From IMG/VR virus record IMGVR_UViG_3300031576_000018, positions 26,840 through 90,839 of that record: 64,000 bases of DNA; one strand, 5' to 3'. Origin of the DNA: a virus. The position numbers and the translations under genes are program-made. The notes under the pieces were generated by a model that saw only the letters and a list, made by a program, of their open reading frames with translations, searched no databases and was not told the DNA's origin. This document shows positions 22,145 to 64,000 of the stretch, one piece after another; position 1 is the first letter of the stretch; every line of letters begins with the position of its first letter.

Positions 22145-22184
22145 ATTTATTTTGTTTACAATTTAGTCTTTTTATGGTATAATA
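22145..22184 (+). promoter_or_regulatory. Repeated sigma70-type promoter P1
   Basis: TTTATTTTG-TTTACA(22155-60)-17 bp-TGG TATAAT(22178-83). Confidence 0.9.
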
Positions 22185-23020: not shown

Positions 23021-23080
23021 TTAACTCAGCTAATCTATTCATTTATTTTGTTTACAATTATAGGTTTATATGGTATAATA
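23021..23080 (+). promoter_or_regulatory. Repeated sigma70-type promoter P2
   Basis: TTAACTCAGCTAATCTA..TTTATTTTG-TTTACA(23051-56)-17-TATAAT(23074-79). Confidence 0.9.
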
Positions 23081-29957: not shown

Positions 29958-30199
29958 CGAATCCTTTTTTCAATCATACTTACACAGGCGATGGCTGTGG
30001 CAGTGGCAGTGGCGATGGCAGTGGCGATGGCAGTGGCTATTATGGCAGTGGCGATGGCTGTGGCTGTGGCAGTGGCTGTGGCAGTGGCTGTGGCAGTGGC
30101 GATGGCAGTGGCGATGGCAGTGGCTATGGCAGTGGCTATGGCGATGGCTATGGCAGTGGCGATGGCGATGGCTATGGCAGTGGCTGTGGCTATGGTTAA
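29945..30199 (+). CDS. Glycine-repeat microprotein (G-[SDCY])n
   Basis: GTG with GGGAG RBS; overlaps upstream stop. Confidence 0.65.
   Translation: MEKLTNPFFNHTYTGDGCGSGSGDGSGDGSGYYGSGDGCGCGSGCGSGCGSGDGSGDGSGYGSGYGDGYGSGDGDGYGSGCGYG
29987..30196 (+). repeat. Hexamer tandem repeat GGC(AGT/GAT/TGT/TAT), ~35 units
   Basis: Seen directly in the sequence. Confidence 0.95.
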
Positions 30200-30268
30200 A
30201 AAAAGGAATTTGTCACCCCCCCCCCTGTTAGCCAAGGAACAAAGCATATTTAGGTAAAGGAGAAATTA

Positions 30269-38640: not shown

Positions 38641-39329
38641 GTTTTTTTACAGTTGGTTTTGAAGCAGTTGTTGAGGAAGCAAAAAGGCAAGAAGACGCCA
38701 GAGCGGCTTACTCGGATTATGACGAACTTTACCTAAACAAGGCTAAAAGCGGAAATGATGAGTGTAAAGTATTCTTTATGAGTACTGAGCCTACTAATTT
38801 TCATATCCATGATTTTGGAGAAGTGACAAAGGACAGATCAGATAAGTTTTTATGCACTGACCCCGTTAATGGGTGTGACATTTGTAAGTATATGGAAAAA
38901 CCCAATAAGTACTTTAAGTCTATGTGGCCTGTTTATGTTCCGCACCATATCTACAGAGCTGTGTCTGAAAAGGGCAAGGATAAGGAGTACAATAATGTTA
39001 TTTCCTATCTTATTTTTCCTGCTAAACACGCTGCTACTTTGGGAGCCAAAGCTACTAAATGGGGTTCATTGACTGACTTTAGAATAGACATTATGAAAGC
39101 AGGGGACGGGGGTTCTTATCAGTTTGAGAAGACCTCTGTGCCAACACCAGAGGATGTGTTAAAGATGCGTATCCCTAAACCAGAGGAGTTTATTGTTCCT
39201 CCCTCTAAAGAAAAGGTAGCTGCTTTTATTAAGAAGTATGCAGGGAAAACCCTTCATGTTGATAAGGTTTCTCTGAGTGCTCCAAAGGAGCCAACACCCG
39301 TACCAGAAAATTTTGAAATAGATTTCTAA
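38637..39329 (+). CDS. Putative single-stranded DNA-binding protein (gp32-like)
   Basis: H..C..CDIC zinc motif, acidic-aromatic C-terminus ENFEIDF, adjacent to polymerase. Confidence 0.7.
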   Translation: MSFFTVGFEAVVEEAKRQEDARAAYSDYDELYLNKAKSGNDECKVFFMSTEPTNFHIHDFGEVTKDRSDKFLCTDPVNGCDICKYMEKPNKYFKSMWPVYVPHHIYRAVSEKGKDKEYNNVISYLIFPAKHAATLGAKATKWGSLTDFRIDIMKAGDGGSYQFEKTSVPTPEDVLKMRIPKPEEFIVPPSKEKVAAFIKKYAGKTLHVDKVSLSAPKEPTPVPENFEIDF

Positions 39330-39370
39330 GTAACTTAGGGCTAGGTTTTTACCCTAGCCCTAAGTTACTT
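39328..39370. terminator. 18-bp perfect inverted repeat between ssb and pol
   Basis: AAGTAACTTAGGGCTAGG tttttac CCTAGCCCTAAGTTACTT. Confidence 0.65.
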
Positions 39371-39433
39371 GTGTACGGACGGTATAGCCCTACGTTCAAT
39401 AAAAATTTAGCTTTTCTTATTATAGGTTATTAA

Positions 39434-41299
39434 ATGATAGTTGACAATTTAGATAAGTTTGAACAATTCTGTGAGTTCCTTTCCCAAGAGCCTTTCATGG
39501 CATTTGATACAGAGACGGATAATCTACACGGTGATATCGTAGGTATGAGTTTTGCCAAGTCTTCCTCAAAAGGTTGGTACATTCCAATAGCGCACGCACC
39601 AAACTTTGTCGATGGGGATAGAAACATTCCCAAAGAAAAAGTTATCGAACTGATGAAGCCTATCTTTGAAGCCAAGCACACACAATGGTTGTGTTGGAAT
39701 TTACAGTACGAGTACTACACCTTACGGCACTGGTTGGGTATTGAAATGGCAACTGGAGAAGATGCCCAGATTATGTACTGGCTTCTTAACTCTGAAGGAA
39801 ATCTACGACTAAAACATAGAGCTGTGGTTGACTTAGGTTTATCTGGAGCCACAACCTATGAGGATATGGCAAAGGGAAAATCCCCAATGTATTCCCCAGT
39901 CGATGAGTGTGGTGAGTACGCCATTCAAGATGCTCGTTTTACTTGGGAACTCTATTGGAAGTATTTACCGCTGCTCAAAGTCAAGGGTAATTGCTACAAT
40001 GTCTACAAAGGAATACACCTACCACTTGTTGTTGTCTTAGATTCAATGTTTGAAAGAGGTATTCGTATTGATCGACAAGCTCTAAACGAGGTGAAAATCT
40101 ATTGCCAAACTAGTATGCTTAGTTTGGCTGAAGAAATGTACTCTGTGGCAAAGCGTTACTTTAATCCTAACTCCGGTTCACAGGTAAGAGATTTATTTGT
40201 TAATCAGCTTAAATTACCTGTTATTAGTTGGACTAAGGGGGGTAAGAGTGGAAATTCTCAACCATCGGTGGATCAGAATGCACTAAGTCACTATGCTAAG
40301 GAAGCGGAAGGGGAAGCGAGTTTACTTGCTAAAAAGGTGTTGGCGTACAGAGAGCTTGGAAAGATTTTGTCTACGTACACGGATTCTATTCTACAAAAAG
40401 CAGACCATTCAGATCGTATACATTCCTCATTTAACCAGACAGGAACGGTAGGCGGTCGGTTTTCTAGCCGTAACCCTAACTTTCAGAATATACCCGCCCG
40501 TTCGGAAGTAGGTAAGGCTATACGGAAGGTATTTATAGCCAGGGAAGGGTACAAACTAGTTTGTGCTGACTTCTCCCAACTAGAGCTTCGTATTTTGGCA
40601 CATTTTACTAAGGACCCTATCCTGTGTGAAGCGTTCGCTACTGGTAAAGACCCGCACTCTGCAACAGCGGCTATGCTAATGTCCATGCCGTATGAAGAGT
40701 TCTTTAGTGCGTATAAAAAACAGAAGGCAAAAGATAAAGAAATTGTTGAATTATGGTTGGCAGAGTACGGGTTTACACCTGAAGATATGCGAGGACGGTC
40801 TAAAACGGTAAATTTTGGTATTGCGTACGGCAAAAATACCGATTTAGATTTAGGGATAACCAAAGACTTCCTTGATCAATGGAAGTCTATTCATAAAGTA
40901 GTGGTTAAGTATATACAAGGCGAACACAAACAACTCCTTAATCAAGGGTTCGTCAATACTGTTCTTGGTAGGTTTAGACATTCAGAAAAAGTGTTTTCTC
41001 CTAGTTGGGAAGAAAGGGAAGCCGCTTTAAGAGAACTTTTCAATACGAAAATTCAAGGAACTGCGGCTGATCTGGCTAATATGAGTATGATTATGATTCA
41101 TGGAGAGTTTCAGACGAGAGGTCTAGACGCTTTCCTTATTGCTCAAGTACATGATGAGATTATAGCCGAGGCTAGAGAACAGCAAGCACAAGAGGTATCA
41201 GATATTATGAAACACTGTATGGAAACATGTTATCCACTAAGTATTGTTTTAGAGGTGGAACCAGGGATAGGAAACAATTGGGTAGAGGCAAAAGGATAA
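39434..41299 (+). CDS. polA: Family A DNA polymerase with 3'-5' exonuclease
   Basis: FDTET, GRFSSRNPNFQNIP, ADFSQLELRILAH, KTVNFGIAYG, QVHDE. Confidence 0.97.
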   Translation: MIVDNLDKFEQFCEFLSQEPFMAFDTETDNLHGDIVGMSFAKSSSKGWYIPIAHAPNFVDGDRNIPKEKVIELMKPIFEAKHTQWLCWNLQYEYYTLRHWLGIEMATGEDAQIMYWLLNSEGNLRLKHRAVVDLGLSGATTYEDMAKGKSPMYSPVDECGEYAIQDARFTWELYWKYLPLLKVKGNCYNVYKGIHLPLVVVLDSMFERGIRIDRQALNEVKIYCQTSMLSLAEEMYSVAKRYFNPNSGSQVRDLFVNQLKLPVISWTKGGKSGNSQPSVDQNALSHYAKEAEGEASLLAKKVLAYRELGKILSTYTDSILQKADHSDRIHSSFNQTGTVGGRFSSRNPNFQNIPARSEVGKAIRKVFIAREGYKLVCADFSQLELRILAHFTKDPILCEAFATGKDPHSATAAMLMSMPYEEFFSAYKKQKAKDKEIVELWLAEYGFTPEDMRGRSKTVNFGIAYGKNTDLDLGITKDFLDQWKSIHKVVVKYIQGEHKQLLNQGFVNTVLGRFRHSEKVFSPSWEEREAALRELFNTKIQGTAADLANMSMIMIHGEFQTRGLDAFLIAQVHDEIIAEAREQQAQEVSDIMKHCMETCYPLSIVLEVEPGIGNNWVEAKG

Positions 41300-58934: not shown

Positions 58935-59206
58935 TATTAGACAACACTAAATATTTGGAGAAGGAAAGCGTAAAGAAACCTCTCCAGACGAGTGTAACGA
59001 TAGATTATGAGGTCGGTTTTATAGTCATTAGTATTCCACAACATCTTCCTATAGGAAGTGAGTCAGATTTTGAAAACAAGTTATTGAAGATAAGCATAAA
59101 AATGGATAATCCAGAGATTAAACTCAAAGGAAGAGAAAAGGTAACCTGTCCATTTAACGCATTAACAGATATAGAAATTAGGGAGAGAAGAAATGACAGA
59201 GGATAA
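58931..59206 (+). CDS. Hypothetical protein
   Basis: ATGA-coupled. Confidence 0.55.
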   Translation: MILDNTKYLEKESVKKPLQTSVTIDYEVGFIVISIPQHLPIGSESDFENKLLKISIKMDNPEIKLKGREKVTCPFNALTDIEIRERRNDRG

Positions 59207-59402
59207 GTTATTTTGTGAACTATCTTGGGATAAGCACAAACTTACAACGGAAGAAAGAGAGAAAAGGCTTCAGGCGTTAAGAGAGCACTACAAGATGACT
59301 GACGAAGAGATGGTCACACGGTTTAAAAATGGTATTGGGTCGTGGGGATCTGGTATAACCGAGTGGTTAGTTTTAATTGGCAGAGGCGATTTGGTGCTTT
59401 GA
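59193..59402 (+). CDS. Hypothetical protein
   Basis: RBS GGGAG. Confidence 0.55.
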   Translation: MTEDKLFCELSWDKHKLTTEEREKRLQALREHYKMTDEEMVTRFKNGIGSWGSGITEWLVLIGRGDLVL

Positions 59403-59450
59403 CTAGAGAGTGATAAAAAATATGAAAGAGGACGAGGAGAGTTATAGACA

Positions 59451-59639
59451 ATGAAATTAAGTAAAGCAAACATTAAGAACCATCACAAAGCAGAGGAACT
59501 GTTAAAACGAGGAGACTTAACCAGCGATGAAAAACTATTTGTTTTCTCTCACTGGAGAGAGGATTATTACAATGTGGTTGCGCCAGTAGGCACTTTTTTA
59601 CGCCTGTTCAGTAGAACCTGTTTATCATACCTGTGGTAG
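59451..59639 (+). pseudogene. Truncated N-terminus of a SAM-dependent DNA methyltransferase-like gene
   Basis: MKLSK..H.KAEELLK..LT.DEK.FV..W.E; adding one T to the T6 run at 59594-99 restores GTFFTP, then a stop follows. Confidence 0.55.
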
Positions 59640-59763
59640 AAACTGTGAGATAGAAGAGTGCACAGGAAGTGGAAATAAGTATTTTATGGAGCAAGAGATT
59701 AATTGCTTAGATGAGGTGTTGAGCTGTATAGAGACTTATAAATAGTTTAAAGGGGTAAGATAA

Positions 59764-60004
59764 ATGTTTATGGATTTAAAAGAATTGATAGTGTTTAATG
59801 CGTTAGCTAGTGAGATAGGTTAAAGAAAAGCCTTCTTGTTAAAGGATATCTATCTTAGAACGAGTTATCCCTCAGCTCCAGATGCTTAAGAGAATAAACA
59901 TTACCCAGTTGTATACCATGTTAGGAGAACTCATAGAGGATAATTTAATAGCCTGTACTAAACTTTTTAAGGGGCAAGCATACGGGTATAGAATTAATTG
60001 GTAG
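59764..60004 (+). pseudogene. Decayed third paralog of the initiator wHTH domain
   Basis: ALASEIG*RKAFLL then +1 frame LYTMLGELIEDNLI..YRINW. Confidence 0.5.
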
Positions 60005-60267
60005 TCTAATCCGTATAAACATTAGATAAGGGTAAACTGAGAGTGTGCTAGAATCTTACTATGTTTTAGACAGCTACTTACGTAGCCTTATTAGCTGTGG
60101 ATAGGAATAAGGAAACCAGTGGGTTTTGGAGAGTGCTTTAGGAATGGAATTTGGCGGAAAGTAGAAGAATTTAGAAGTGCCCAGAGGGCTTTCAAAAACA
60201 CAAGGGAAATCTGCAAATTTTCATTCCTCCTTGCCGTAGTATAAGCTAGAATAGCCTACCTTTCTTT

Positions 60268-60296
60268 AGAATACAGCAATCAACCAACTTTGTCAA
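60268..60296 (-). promoter_or_regulatory. Minus-strand sigma70-like promoter
   Basis: TTGACA-17-TATTCT on the reverse strand. Confidence 0.5.
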
Positions 60297-61460
60297 GCAA
60301 ATTAGCGCACTTTCAGAATACACCCTCTTTAAAAGTGTGCGGAACGCACTGACGACCAGGATGGAGAGCCTGAAGCTATCCGTGTTATTCCTTCCACTTT
60401 ACCCCCCGTGGGGAAGAAACCTAGTACTAGTCATTACCAAATTTTTATTTACTTGATATAGAACTAGAAGAGATAAATCAGGGGAAAAAGCCTGAAAACA
60501 GGAAAACATTTTTTTATAAAATGGACGAATTTGATTTTTGATTTCTTACTTTTGGTAGTAGAAATTTAGTCAATCCTGTTGGTTCCTATTATAAGATATG
60601 CCTTAATTATACAAGAAAATGGCAGGAAAAGAAAGATAAAAGTGCCATTTCTAAGGGTATATTTTAATCAAATATGTAGGATATAACCAGGTTTTTGTAG
60701 TATACAGAGGAATATTGTAAATAAGCCCTTTTTCACTTTATCTCATAAAGTAGAATTGGAAAGGACAAAAAGTAAAAATGGTTATATTCTTTAGTTTTCT
60801 AACATATCTGGCAGAGGTTCTCAGAACGAAATCCCTCATGCTAACTGTAAATACAAAACACGTCTAGATTCAGCGGCTTTAGCTAATGAAGATTTGTAAA
60901 GTACCTAAAAAATTGATATTAAGAGTAGAGGCTAGCTTTACGAAGATATAACGAGTAATCAAGAGAGAATCACTTAACCCCAAAAAAGGGGTAGGAATAA
61001 ATGGTGCTATCAGTAGAGAAAGCTGTGCCACAATTACCGTTTGACAGAATACAACAGAATACACGTGTGTAAAACGTAAACCGTCCCGACTTTTTTACAT
61101 TTCTTTACAATTAAAGAGACAGGAATTTACTTTGTGGGTTAAAGTTATAAATAGAGAAGTACGATACTCACAGAATAACTGAAATCTGTACCATACCAAC
61201 ATTTGACAGGTGTATAGCGTAGGCGTACAGGGTAAACGTGTAACGTAGATGTAGAAAATGGGGGAAATTTTGAAATAAAATCCTTACCGGAGAACAGGGC
61301 TCCCGCCTGTTCTCCCCCAGGAAATTCCCAGCCTAAAATTCCCCTTCCCAGAAATTGGCAGTGGGTGTGATAGGGCTTCGCCTAGTGAAATGTTTCCAGA
61401 CTCCCTTTCCTCAAATTGTCAGCTTCTTTGAAGCTCTTTTCTTTAACCTTTCATATTTAT

Positions 61461-61490
61461 ATTATAACTCATTACGTGCTACAAAGTCAA
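61461..61490 (-). promoter_or_regulatory. Minus-strand sigma70 promoter with no downstream ORF
   Basis: TTGACT-18-TATAAT on the reverse strand. Confidence 0.7.
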
Positions 61491-61511
61491 TAGCTAAATG
61501 AGTTATTTTTG

Positions 61512-61553
61512 AAAAAAAAAATAAAAAAAATTAGAGGGTATCCCCTACCCTCT
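61512..61553 (-). terminator. Minus-strand intrinsic terminator
   Basis: AGAGGGTA gggga TACCCTCT followed by long U-runs on the reverse strand. Confidence 0.8.
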
Positions 61554-61566
61554 GGAAATTTTGAGG

Positions 61567-61707
61567 TTAACTTACTGCTCTCAGAGCTACGATTAGCTCT
61601 TGAGTTGTTAGCCCTTGCGCTGCCAACATAGCGACAATTGTAGCTATGGGTGCGAGGGTTTCATTTCCCAAGTGTATGATTTCTTGTACAATTTCTTGTT
61701 TGCTCAT
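61567..61707 (-). CDS. Unannotated 46-aa microprotein
   Basis: MSKQEIVQEIIHLGNETLAPIATIVAMLAAQGLTTQELIVALRAVS; AAGGA RBS, TGcTACAAT -10 upstream, terminator downstream. Confidence 0.75.
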   Translation of the reverse strand: MSKQEIVQEIIHLGNETLAPIATIVAMLAAQGLTTQELIVALRAVS

Positions 61708-62191
61708 TTGTTTTGTTTCCTTTTTATTTTACGTTTTATACCTATATTGTAGCACGAAATAAACAAAACTTGCTACCAATTTTGTATTTAGTTTGTGTTA
61801 AATTTGTTTAACAAACCTTCTCTCAATCTCTACCGGTTTGCCCTACACTTTTTACCTACAAAATTAGCCTATGCTCTTGAGACTCGTTTAAATCCATTTC
61901 TAGCCATGTTTCTAACTTGTGGTACTAAATCATTACTTGCTCTCAAACTCTATACTCCGCATGAACACTATGTTTGAGACTCATAACAAATCATTAACAG
62001 TTAAACCCCCATGCTAAAAAACGCTTATATATAGATGTTTAGAGAAAGTGCCTCAAACCCAGTAATAGCACCATTTTTTAAGTTTCCAGACAAATAATCG
62101 AACATTGATGAAAAAGGCTAATTGTAAGAGAACAGAAGAGAACACTACTGATTATGTGCTACAAATAAACAAGTATGGCACAATATGAGAC

Positions 62192-62220
62192 TAGACAATG
62201 ATACCATTTTGATATATGAT
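62192..62220 (+). promoter_or_regulatory. Plus-strand sigma70-like promoter
   Basis: TAGACA-17-TATGAT. Confidence 0.6.
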
Positions 62221-62226
62221 AGCTAT

Positions 62227-62365
62227 ATCGAAAGACAAACAAATCGAAGCGATTCTAACAAGAGTCATCGAAGCGACTTTCTAGTTTAATCTTACTAGCT
62301 GTGAGCATAACACAGTATTGAAAAAAACAATGCGAGTGTTATAGATTGTCACTCAATACAATCTA
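62227..62365 (+). ncRNA. Candidate structured RNA/leader: five hairpins plus H-type pseudoknot
   Basis: Consecutive stems seen by eye directly after the promoter. Confidence 0.45.
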
Positions 62366-62390
62366 AATAAATAGGTTATAGGTAATTGTT

Positions 62391-62636
62391 ATGATGTGTG
62401 CCCCTGAATTAAGAAAAAATGCTACTAGATACACGATTGGTACTAATACATCTGTTTTAGATTTGTTTAGAACAGATAATTTTGAGGATGTTAAAAAATA
62501 CTTCAAAGATAATTTCAGTACCGATTCTAGTATGATTTTTACTAAAAATTTAGGAGAACGTACAGACAATCATTTTCATCTCAATACTGATGAAATCTGT
62601 TGTTACAAAACAGTTACACATTACTATAACTACTAG
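62391..62636 (+). CDS. Hypothetical protein
   Basis: ORF after the structured leader. Confidence 0.5.
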   Translation: MMCAPELRKNATRYTIGTNTSVLDLFRTDNFEDVKKYFKDNFSTDSSMIFTKNLGERTDNHFHLNTDEICCYKTVTHYYNY

Positions 62637-62686
62637 TTTTATAAAATTGCTAAAAATCTATAAAATTAAAAAGGAAATTATTTATA

Positions 62687-63463
62687 ATGTCTATGAATTT
62701 TACAAATTTTGGTTCACTTCTTAAAGCCGGTATTGAATCTGTGACAGGTGTACCCGCTAAGGTAGCGGGTACACGTTCTGTTAGTGATAACTTAGTGTTT
62801 ATTCCCGCCATTGGGTTAATGGGTAACTACCCTGTGTTAACTGCCTATTTTGGCTCTGCCTTTGCCGATAGTCTATTATCAGGTGATCCTAATTTTTCCC
62901 TAATCGATCAAAATAGTATTGTTGCTCGTGTTTCTACTAAAGACAGTAACGGAAAACCTGATTTTACAAGAGGTAAAAGCAATGGCAAACCTGCTAGTAA
63001 AGCGGGTAGAATCGTTGAAGCATTGACTATGGTTATTCAAGGACAAGAAGCTATTAAGAACTATAAACACCTCAACACCTATTTTAAGTCTTTTTTATCT
63101 CACAATGATTCAAAGTCTAGAAAGTGGAAAGTCTGTAACAATTTCATTGAAACACTGGAAAGTAACCTTGTGTTAATATCTGAAAAAACTGTGTGTTCTA
63201 GTGAAGACATCGCTGTTTTAGATGGATTACTAACTATGATGAATCATTGGGATTCAAACACGGTTAATGAGGGTATTCTTAGTAACTCTCTTAATGTTAG
63301 AAGTCTTGTATTCACAGCCGATAAGGATGATTTGAAAGTTAATCAGGACAAAGTAAACTATGTGTTTACTGGTAGTTTAAAAGAACATAACATTGTTGTC
63401 GGTGATATTCTGCCTATCAATGATGTGTATGAGATCCTATTTGAACGTGAATTGAAATTCTAG
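62687..63463 (+). CDS. Hypothetical protein
   Basis: 258 aa, RBS AAGGA. Confidence 0.75.
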   Translation: MSMNFTNFGSLLKAGIESVTGVPAKVAGTRSVSDNLVFIPAIGLMGNYPVLTAYFGSAFADSLLSGDPNFSLIDQNSIVARVSTKDSNGKPDFTRGKSNGKPASKAGRIVEALTMVIQGQEAIKNYKHLNTYFKSFLSHNDSKSRKWKVCNNFIETLESNLVLISEKTVCSSEDIAVLDGLLTMMNHWDSNTVNEGILSNSLNVRSLVFTADKDDLKVNQDKVNYVFTGSLKEHNIVVGDILPINDVYEILFERELKF

Positions 63464-63612
63464 GCAATGAACGCACCCTTTCAGGTGTCAGCGGTTGGTA
63501 CACTGATTATCTTTCTCATGATCTGTATGCTGTCACAGTGTAGCGTATAGAACAAGAGTTTGTAGGTTCTCATCAAAAACCTATACCTTCTCTAAACAAA
63601 CTAATAAATCTA

Positions 63613-63903
63613 ATGGGAGCTAATAAAACAATGAGTAACACAGTTTATATGATAGGTGAAAGTTTAAGTATCAATGTTCATAGAGTGCGTTCAAAGGAAC
63701 TCAAAGCAGTCATCAAGGAGCTAAACAAAATAGCAAAGCACAAGGCAAAGATTGAGAAAGCGGAGTACTATCGCAACACGGCGATACTCAATATTGAGTA
63801 CAAGGCAGAAAAAAGAGAGCATAGCTATAAACTTTTTGCCACTTCTTTTGATGACCTCCCGCTAGTAGAGGATTATAAAGAGGAAAGGTCAAACATTATC
63901 TAG
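63613..63903 (+). CDS. Hypothetical protein
   Basis: Probable true start at MSNTV after GGGAG. Confidence 0.6.
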   Translation: MGANKTMSNTVYMIGESLSINVHRVRSKELKAVIKELNKIAKHKAKIEKAEYYRNTAILNIEYKAEKREHSYKLFATSFDDLPLVEDYKEERSNII

Positions 63904-63917
63904 GCTGTCATTCAATT

Positions 63918-63951
63918 AAAAAGACCTGCTAATTTTAGTAGGTCTTTTTTT
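63918..63951 (+). terminator. Intrinsic (possibly bidirectional) terminator
   Basis: AAAAAGACCTGCTAA tt TTAGTAGGTCTTTTTTT. Confidence 0.85.
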
Positions 63952-64000
63952 ATGTCTGGAAATATTTGAATTAACGCTACAACGTAGGCTACTACTAGGC

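Follow-up and report, generated by a model that had tools for sequence, protein, structure and literature searches.

The stretch at 62227–62365 is best explained, with somewhat less than even confidence, as a structured 5′ untranslated leader, which together with the first cistron would act in cis on the stability, processing or translation of the mRNA of a small phage operon. Its above-chance structure is limited to the last 60 nt, in which two hairpins, A and B, are located about 10 nt upstream of a Shine-Dalgarno sequence. These hairpins would mark the 5′ border of a larger mRNA fold (62225–62690), the core of which would be a three-way junction within the first cistron, orf81. As a leader, the element is ordinary in kind, and the function proposed for it is putative. 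The main practical value of the analysis, a single-sequence prediction, is that it corrects an initial annotation of five hairpins and a pseudoknot and redirects attention to 62400–62560.

The window, i.e., the whole stretch of 64,000 nt that was analyzed, comprises bases 26840–90839 of a 90,839-bp IMG/VR record. The record begins and ends with the same 127 bp, suggesting that the assembly is circular or permuted. Almost all genes lie on the + strand, and no tRNA or tmRNA genes were found. The phage is an orphan with a genome of about 90.7 kb, and its family-A DNA polymerase shares at most 28–32% identity with any sequence from GenBank phages or IMG/VR. No ORF of at least 85 codons exists between 59639 and 62391, either with the standard code or with any single stop-codon reassignment, and stop-codon reassignment was discarded as an explanation of the ORF-poor 59.64–62.39 kb. 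A coding signal is absent from all frames of 59640–61500. The ORF at 59451–59639 (+, 62 aa) matches phrog_3820, a 255-position profile of a DNA methyltransferase, at positions 3–52 only (E 1e-6), and the genome lacks the remainder of this gene; 59451–61500 looks like a truncated gene followed by about 1.9 kb of decayed or non-coding DNA.

Transcription of the leader would start near 62227, from a predicted promoter. The TAGACA-17-TATGAT promoter named in the initial annotation was located at 62192–62220 (+), 7 nt upstream of the flagged stretch, with 10 of 12 positions matching and a predicted start near 62227. It is a generic sigma-70-like site and lies outside the conserved TTTACA..TGGTATAAT promoter family of the phage. 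The members of this family, located on the + strand at 22155, 23051, 28671, 48061 and 56068, are strong promoters of almost identical sequence (TTTACA-17-TATAAT and an upstream TG, TGGTATAAT); some 45 nt of the sequence upstream are common to those at 23051, 28671 and 56068. Promoter-like sites are not enriched in 59000–64000, with 19 vs. 16.2 in shuffles. As regards the requirements of a 5′ leader, the downstream ORF has a coding signal, while the transcription start is a prediction from a 10/12 match, which occurs at background frequency.

A GTGCTACAAA box resembling an extended −10 element is located at 62156–62165 (+) and may act ahead of the leader as an operator or as an alternative promoter. 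It is one of three in the control region at 61.4–62.2 kb, the other copies being at 61476–61485 (+) and 61747–61756 (−). The three copies of GTGCTACAA(A/T) are clustered within 700 bp, where they coincide with divergent promoter-like sites or adjoin them, an arrangement that fits a control region. They may serve as extended −10 elements or as operators; GTGCTAGAAT is also present at 60045 (+). In the same region, 61426–61740 ranks third in the window by degree of structure and folds on both strands, with −56.1 kcal/mol and an approximate z of −5.9 on the + strand and a z of −4.2 on the minus strand. A minus-strand ORF of 46 codons at 61567–61707 overlaps this locus; it has a coding-like codon score of 0.267 and a terminator of its own at 61533–61553, and a + strand transcript from the GTGCTACAAA box at 61476 might cross it in antisense.

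No intrinsic terminator is present between 62227 and 62390, and hairpins A and B lack a trailing U-run. Thus, the leader would be read into orf81, and it qualifies neither as an attenuator of the terminator type nor as an sRNA with a defined end. A transcription attenuator or terminator-type riboswitch was accordingly rejected for want of a terminator-like site in the leader. A leader peptide was rejected as well, the sole AUG of the leader opening a 4-codon frame without a Shine-Dalgarno sequence.

The initial annotation had called the stretch densely structured and had proposed a comparison with dinucleotide shuffles. In nested folding against such shuffles, the + strand of 62227–62365 reached an MFE of −31.9 kcal/mol vs. 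−21.3 ± 3.3 kcal/mol for the shuffles (z −3.19), and 2 of 200 shuffles were equally good. The minus strand gave a z of −0.35. The folding signal is strand-specific, being confined to the + strand, and this asymmetry depends on very few G-U pairs. The MFE structure accounts for 9% of the ensemble of the 139-nt stretch, and about 17 nt at the 5′ end are predicted to be single-stranded. The 5′ part (62227–62299, +) contains short hairpins of 4–6 bp, i.e., three of the five hairpins described before, together with both copies of ATCGAAGCGA, and folds at chance level (z −0.76), whereas the 3′ part (62300–62366, + strand) yielded a z of −3.37. Above-chance folding is limited to the 3′ third and to the + strand.

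The main source of the leader folding signal is hairpin A (62307–62342, +). It combines AUAACAC/GUGUUAU (7 bp) and GUAUUG/CAAUGC (6 bp, one G-U) into an interrupted stem of 13 bp with an A7 loop, and when folded alone as 62306–62343, it reached −11.7 kcal/mol with a z of −5.69. Hairpin B (62342–62365, +) is formed by UAGAUUGU and ACAAUCUA (7–8 bp) around the 8-nt loop CACUCAAU; it is weaker (−6.9 kcal/mol, z −1.8) and identical with the second stem of the pseudoknot proposed earlier. Both hairpins were seen in all contexts folded, with pair probabilities of about 0.6–0.7. They abut and would amount to about 20 bp if stacked.

Each of the stem motifs named before was found in the + strand sequence at or near its place: AAUCG (62242) with CGAUU (62250), AGUC (62263) with GACU (62275), CUAGU (62281) with ACUAG (62294), CUGUG (62299) with CACAG (62311), GUAUUG (62315) with CAAUGC (62328), GAGUG (62334) with CACUC (62350), and UAGAUUGU (62342) with ACAAUCUA (62358). 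The five-hairpin architecture built from them did not hold, three of its hairpins being at chance level and two of its stems clashing with hairpin A, which is absent from that model. The 5′ arm of hairpin A overlaps CACAG and thus excludes the CUGUG/CACAG hairpin, and its 3′ arm GUGUUAU overlaps GAGUG and thus excludes the pseudoknot stem GAGUG/CACUC. Moreover, the CACAG and GUAUUG arms of the earlier model share G62315. Its nested part has an energy of −20.0 kcal/mol, i.e., about the shuffle mean of −21.3 kcal/mol, vs. −31.9 kcal/mol for the MFE structure.

The H-type pseudoknot fared similarly. Its two stems with interleaved arms, stem 1 at 62334–62354 (+; GAGUG 62334–38 with CACUC 62350–54) and UAGAUUGU/ACAAUCUA, are present in the sequence. 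Since ViennaRNA cannot score pseudoknots directly, the energy was calculated as the stacking of GAGUG/CACUC (about −8.8 kcal/mol) plus the best compatible nested fold. The knotted fold amounted to −21.8 kcal/mol without penalty, −14.8 kcal/mol with a penalty of 7 and −12.2 kcal/mol with a penalty of 9.6, compared with −17.3 kcal/mol for the knot-free alternative. The pseudoknot would beat the nested conformer only if the penalty were below about 4.5 kcal/mol. Under usual parameter sets, the model does not favour it, and it is a possible minor conformer. When the 20 nt upstream of an 8-nt loop were compared with the loop, 6–7% of shuffled or natural cases had a 5-nt complement. By these estimates, the knot is favoured neither statistically nor energetically. 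Five hairpins and a pseudoknot are not what the sequence favours, and most of this architecture is at chance level.

These results bear on the somewhat unlikely explanation that the locus has no RNA-level function, its leader stems being inverted repeats that occur incidentally in AT-rich intergenic DNA and were picked by eye. The chance-level 5′ half, the earlier model that is no better than shuffled sequences, and the repeat and pseudoknot stem occurring at chance frequency would all be expected on this account. So would the outcome of a structure scan of the whole window in 140-nt windows on both strands (approximate z, calibrated on 391 shuffled windows), in which the flagged stretch ranked 12th among the 25 loci with a z below −3.3, and in which 2.4% of all + strand windows fell below z −3. 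It does not account for hairpin A, which alone has a z of −5.7, for the + strand specificity of the fold, or for the adjoining and far stronger + strand fold that survives synonymous-codon permutation. Five of the 25 most structured loci of the window are located in 61.4–64.0 kb.

The 10-mer ATCGAAGCGA occurs at 62243 and 62267, the sole two exact copies in the 90.8-kb genome. This uniqueness would suit control at the DNA level. A DNA-binding protein of the phage or its host would then use as operators the two palindromes AATCGAAGCGATT and CATCGAAGCGACT, which lie at +16 to +52 with their centres 24 bp apart, as well as the remaining inverted repeats, and these operators would act jointly with the GTGCTACAA boxes in the divergent promoter region. 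Most stems are perfect Watson-Crick inverted repeats and hence symmetric in DNA, and the three GTGCTACAA boxes on divergent promoter-like sites are nearby. This possibility is nevertheless very unlikely. The repeat is rated at chance level because local 10-mer direct repeats were found at 4 loci of the window vs. 2.4 ± 1.6 expected; the boxes do not cover the promoter-like site but follow it downstream; an advantage in folding is seen on the + strand only; and no cognate regulator was found, the neighbouring proteins matching no family. Paired DNA operators were set aside on the repeat frequency and on the lack of a regulator among the neighbouring proteins.

The description of the stretch as a novel ncRNA or leader stood in its second half, because the order of promoter-like site, stretch and ribosome-binding site of a coding ORF fits a leader; the ncRNA half was unsupported. 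A free-standing regulatory RNA is most improbable, whether as an sRNA or protein sponge, as an immunity RNA processed in the manner of P4 CI or P1 c4, or as a ribozyme or riboswitch with a pseudoknot. The promoter-like site directly upstream, the well-defined fold with the MFE structure at 9% of the ensemble, and the pseudoknotted conformer that is possible if the penalty is small would agree with it. Against it, no terminator or other 3′ boundary precedes orf81, the pseudoknot is not favoured and occurs at chance frequency, repeated protein-binding loop motifs are lacking except for one chance-level 10-mer pair, no homologues were found, and the stretch has no Rfam match even at E ≤ 10. An independent small RNA gene was rejected, since only the promoter-like site is present and no terminator lies before orf81, and a CsrA-type sponge was rejected, since the loops lack GGA motifs.

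The initial annotation had recognised no known riboswitch or ribozyme in the stretch, and the Rfam search agreed. With Rfam 15, whose families include riboswitches, ribozymes, 6S, GOLLD/ROOL and the phage pRNA and C4 antisense RNA, the whole window gave 0 matches at gathering thresholds, and at E ≤ 10 nothing overlapped 62227–62365, the weak matches elsewhere being far below thresholds. No paralogue of the leader was found elsewhere in the genome. A blastn search of 59500–64000 against 50,697 phage records returned no match. Exact and gapped DNA patterns in IMG/VR revealed no relative, the 22 matches being unrelated repeats or coding sequence; the scan of JGI metagenome DNA gave 4 matches, all to unrelated coding DNA of higher GC; and two DNA scans of species-representative genomes gave no match. 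For orf81, orf258 and an 814-aa neighbour protein, no relatives were found in IMG/VR or the phage collection, and the neighbour proteins had none among 5.8 billion clustered proteins. In an exhaustive HMMER run, the protein matched only itself, apart from one spurious match caused by repeats. A 4,537-bp Logan contig carries identical genes. The neighbouring proteins matched nothing in PADLOC, Pfam or PHROG, and retron, toxin-antitoxin and defence readings are unsupported without such matches.

According to the preferred reading, i.e., the 5′ leader, the transcription unit would run rightward through orf81, orf258 and orf96 to the terminator at 63918–63949, within a sparsely coding control region. 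The ribosome-binding region at 62374–62393 (+) comprises an AGGU-type Shine-Dalgarno sequence and the AUGAUG start of orf81 (62391–62636, +), an orphan 81-codon gene and the first cistron after the leader. Because 62400–62560 folds so strongly, orf81 was initially suspected to be spurious. With a codon-usage score trained on 49 long genes of this phage, orf81 scored 0.271 in frame vs. 0.056 and −0.104 out of frame, and its structured part scored 0.414 in frame. In comparison, 81-codon segments of real genes scored 0.285 ± 0.093 and minus-strand ORFs −0.03 ± 0.16. By this measure, the coding signal of orf81 appears genuine and typical of the genes of the phage, and the idea of a spurious ORF over an ncRNA was dropped because of the frame-specific codon signal. 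The structure model of the protein was poor (pLDDT 0.39), so that codon usage is the sole argument for the reality of orf81.

Inside orf81, the 161 nt at 62400–62560 (+) form a predicted three-way-junction RNA domain. Its energy of −44.7 kcal/mol compares with −21.5 ± 3.2 kcal/mol for dinucleotide shuffles (z −7.38; 0 of 200 as good). Synonymous-codon permutation, which keeps the protein and the codon usage, gave a z of −4.18 for 62400–62560 (0 of 300 permutations as stable) and of −4.32 for 62366–62690 (0 of 150 as stable). The minus strand of 62400–62560 reached −30.0 kcal/mol (z −3.5). The junction is closed by an irregular helix of 8+2+6+7+9 bp between 62403–62444 and 62517–62554 and bears a 12-bp hairpin at 62450–62477 and an 11-bp hairpin at 62481–62507. 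The fold at 62400–62560 is far stronger than that of the flagged leader and is the better probing target. Taken as a whole, 62225–62690 has a z of −6.0.

In the global fold, the 3′ end of orf81 (62606–62631, +) is predicted to pair with the ribosome-binding region of its own cistron (62374–62393) through helices of 8 + 9 + 2 bp, and the mean unpaired probability of the Shine-Dalgarno bases, about 0.5 in shorter transcripts, is only 0.03 as soon as 62640 is included. With −15.9 vs. −11.9 ± 2.4 kcal/mol, this duplex is marginal (p about 0.05). Since the Shine-Dalgarno sequence would be paired to the 3′ end of orf81 in the full-length fold, initiation may be easy only during mRNA synthesis, i.e., on the nascent mRNA. 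The folded 5′ region would slow 5′-end-dependent decay or give a double-strand processing site and, in addition, would restrict how much of the first cistron is translated into protein. A stronger claim, namely that the approximately 460 nt at 62227–62690 are one regulatory RNA domain selected for its fold, with hairpins, junction and closure of the ribosome-binding site by the 3′ end of the cistron, so that orf81 would be translated only co-transcriptionally or after processing, or the RNA would have a dual function with a non-coding role of its own, is unlikely. If the fold is real, it would illustrate how an operon's first gene is gated post-transcriptionally in a phage lineage without sequenced relatives, and how RNA structure is written into coding sequence strongly enough to survive synonymous-codon permutation.

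Structured 5′ leaders of mRNAs from phages and bacteria are known to stabilise messages or to gate translation, as exemplified by the 5′ UTR hairpins of ompA, the RNase III-processed lambda N leader and the early mRNA sites of T7. The present leader is alike in that it follows a promoter-like site and precedes the first ribosome-binding site, with hairpins close to the Shine-Dalgarno sequence. RNase III accepts about 20 bp or more of double-stranded RNA. Hairpin A has 13 bp, A and B together would reach about 20 bp if stacked, and the long irregular helix at 62403–62554 has 32 bp with small interruptions, i.e., a size that RNase III accepts. Unlike classic 5′-terminal stabiliser hairpins, the leader is preceded by the roughly 17 nt predicted to be single-stranded. 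Rfam revealed no sequence relation to known leaders, and its transcription and processing are putative.

Other systems are less similar. The autoregulatory leader of T4 gene 32 consists of an H-type pseudoknot and an unstructured A/U-rich tract leading to the start codon. If the pseudoknot at 62334–62365 were formed, an A/U-rich tract (AAAUAAAUAGG...) would likewise follow, with the start codon 25 nt downstream, but the pseudoknot is not favoured here, with an occurrence at chance frequency, and the downstream gene is an 81-aa orphan without signs of a single-strand-binding protein. Long-range sequestration of ribosome-binding sites is known from the fold-back inhibition of hok mRNA and the long-distance pairings in MS2 RNA. 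Here, the Shine-Dalgarno region 62374–62390 is predicted to pair with 62609–62631 at the end of the same cistron, with accessibility falling as given above, but the duplex is marginal. Unlike hok, orf81 encodes a polar protein and not a small hydrophobic toxin, and no antisense RNA partner was identified. The phi29-type pRNA, for which Rfam has a family model, is a three-way junction closed by a 5′/3′ helix. The domain at 62400–62560, about 160 nt in length, is likewise predicted to be a three-way junction, in which two hairpins project from a long closing helix; in contrast to pRNA, it gave no Rfam match and lies inside a coding frame, and the genome has 90 kb vs. about 20 kb in phi29-like phages.

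Downstream of orf81, the second cistron, orf258 (62687–63463, +), and the third, orf96 (63613–63903, +), are orphans with codon scores of 0.315 and 0.262, respectively. They are followed by a strong intrinsic terminator at 63918–63949 (+) with a 14-pair stem and a T-run, which is likely the end of the transcription unit. The interior of orf258 contains a near-perfect 12-bp palindrome, GTGTACCCGCTA-AGG-TAGCGGGTACAC, at 62748–62774 (+), and a related half-copy is found at 62989–63008. Elsewhere in the window, dense tandem TGGCAGTGGC-type repeats of 6/12 nt occupy 29998–30185 (+) in the small ORF 29991–30257, and the structure signal of this locus (−67.9 kcal/mol) is due to these repeats. The most structured locus of the window, 39236–39445, with an approximate z of −6.5 on both strands, lies across the gap that immediately precedes the DNA polymerase gene (39434).
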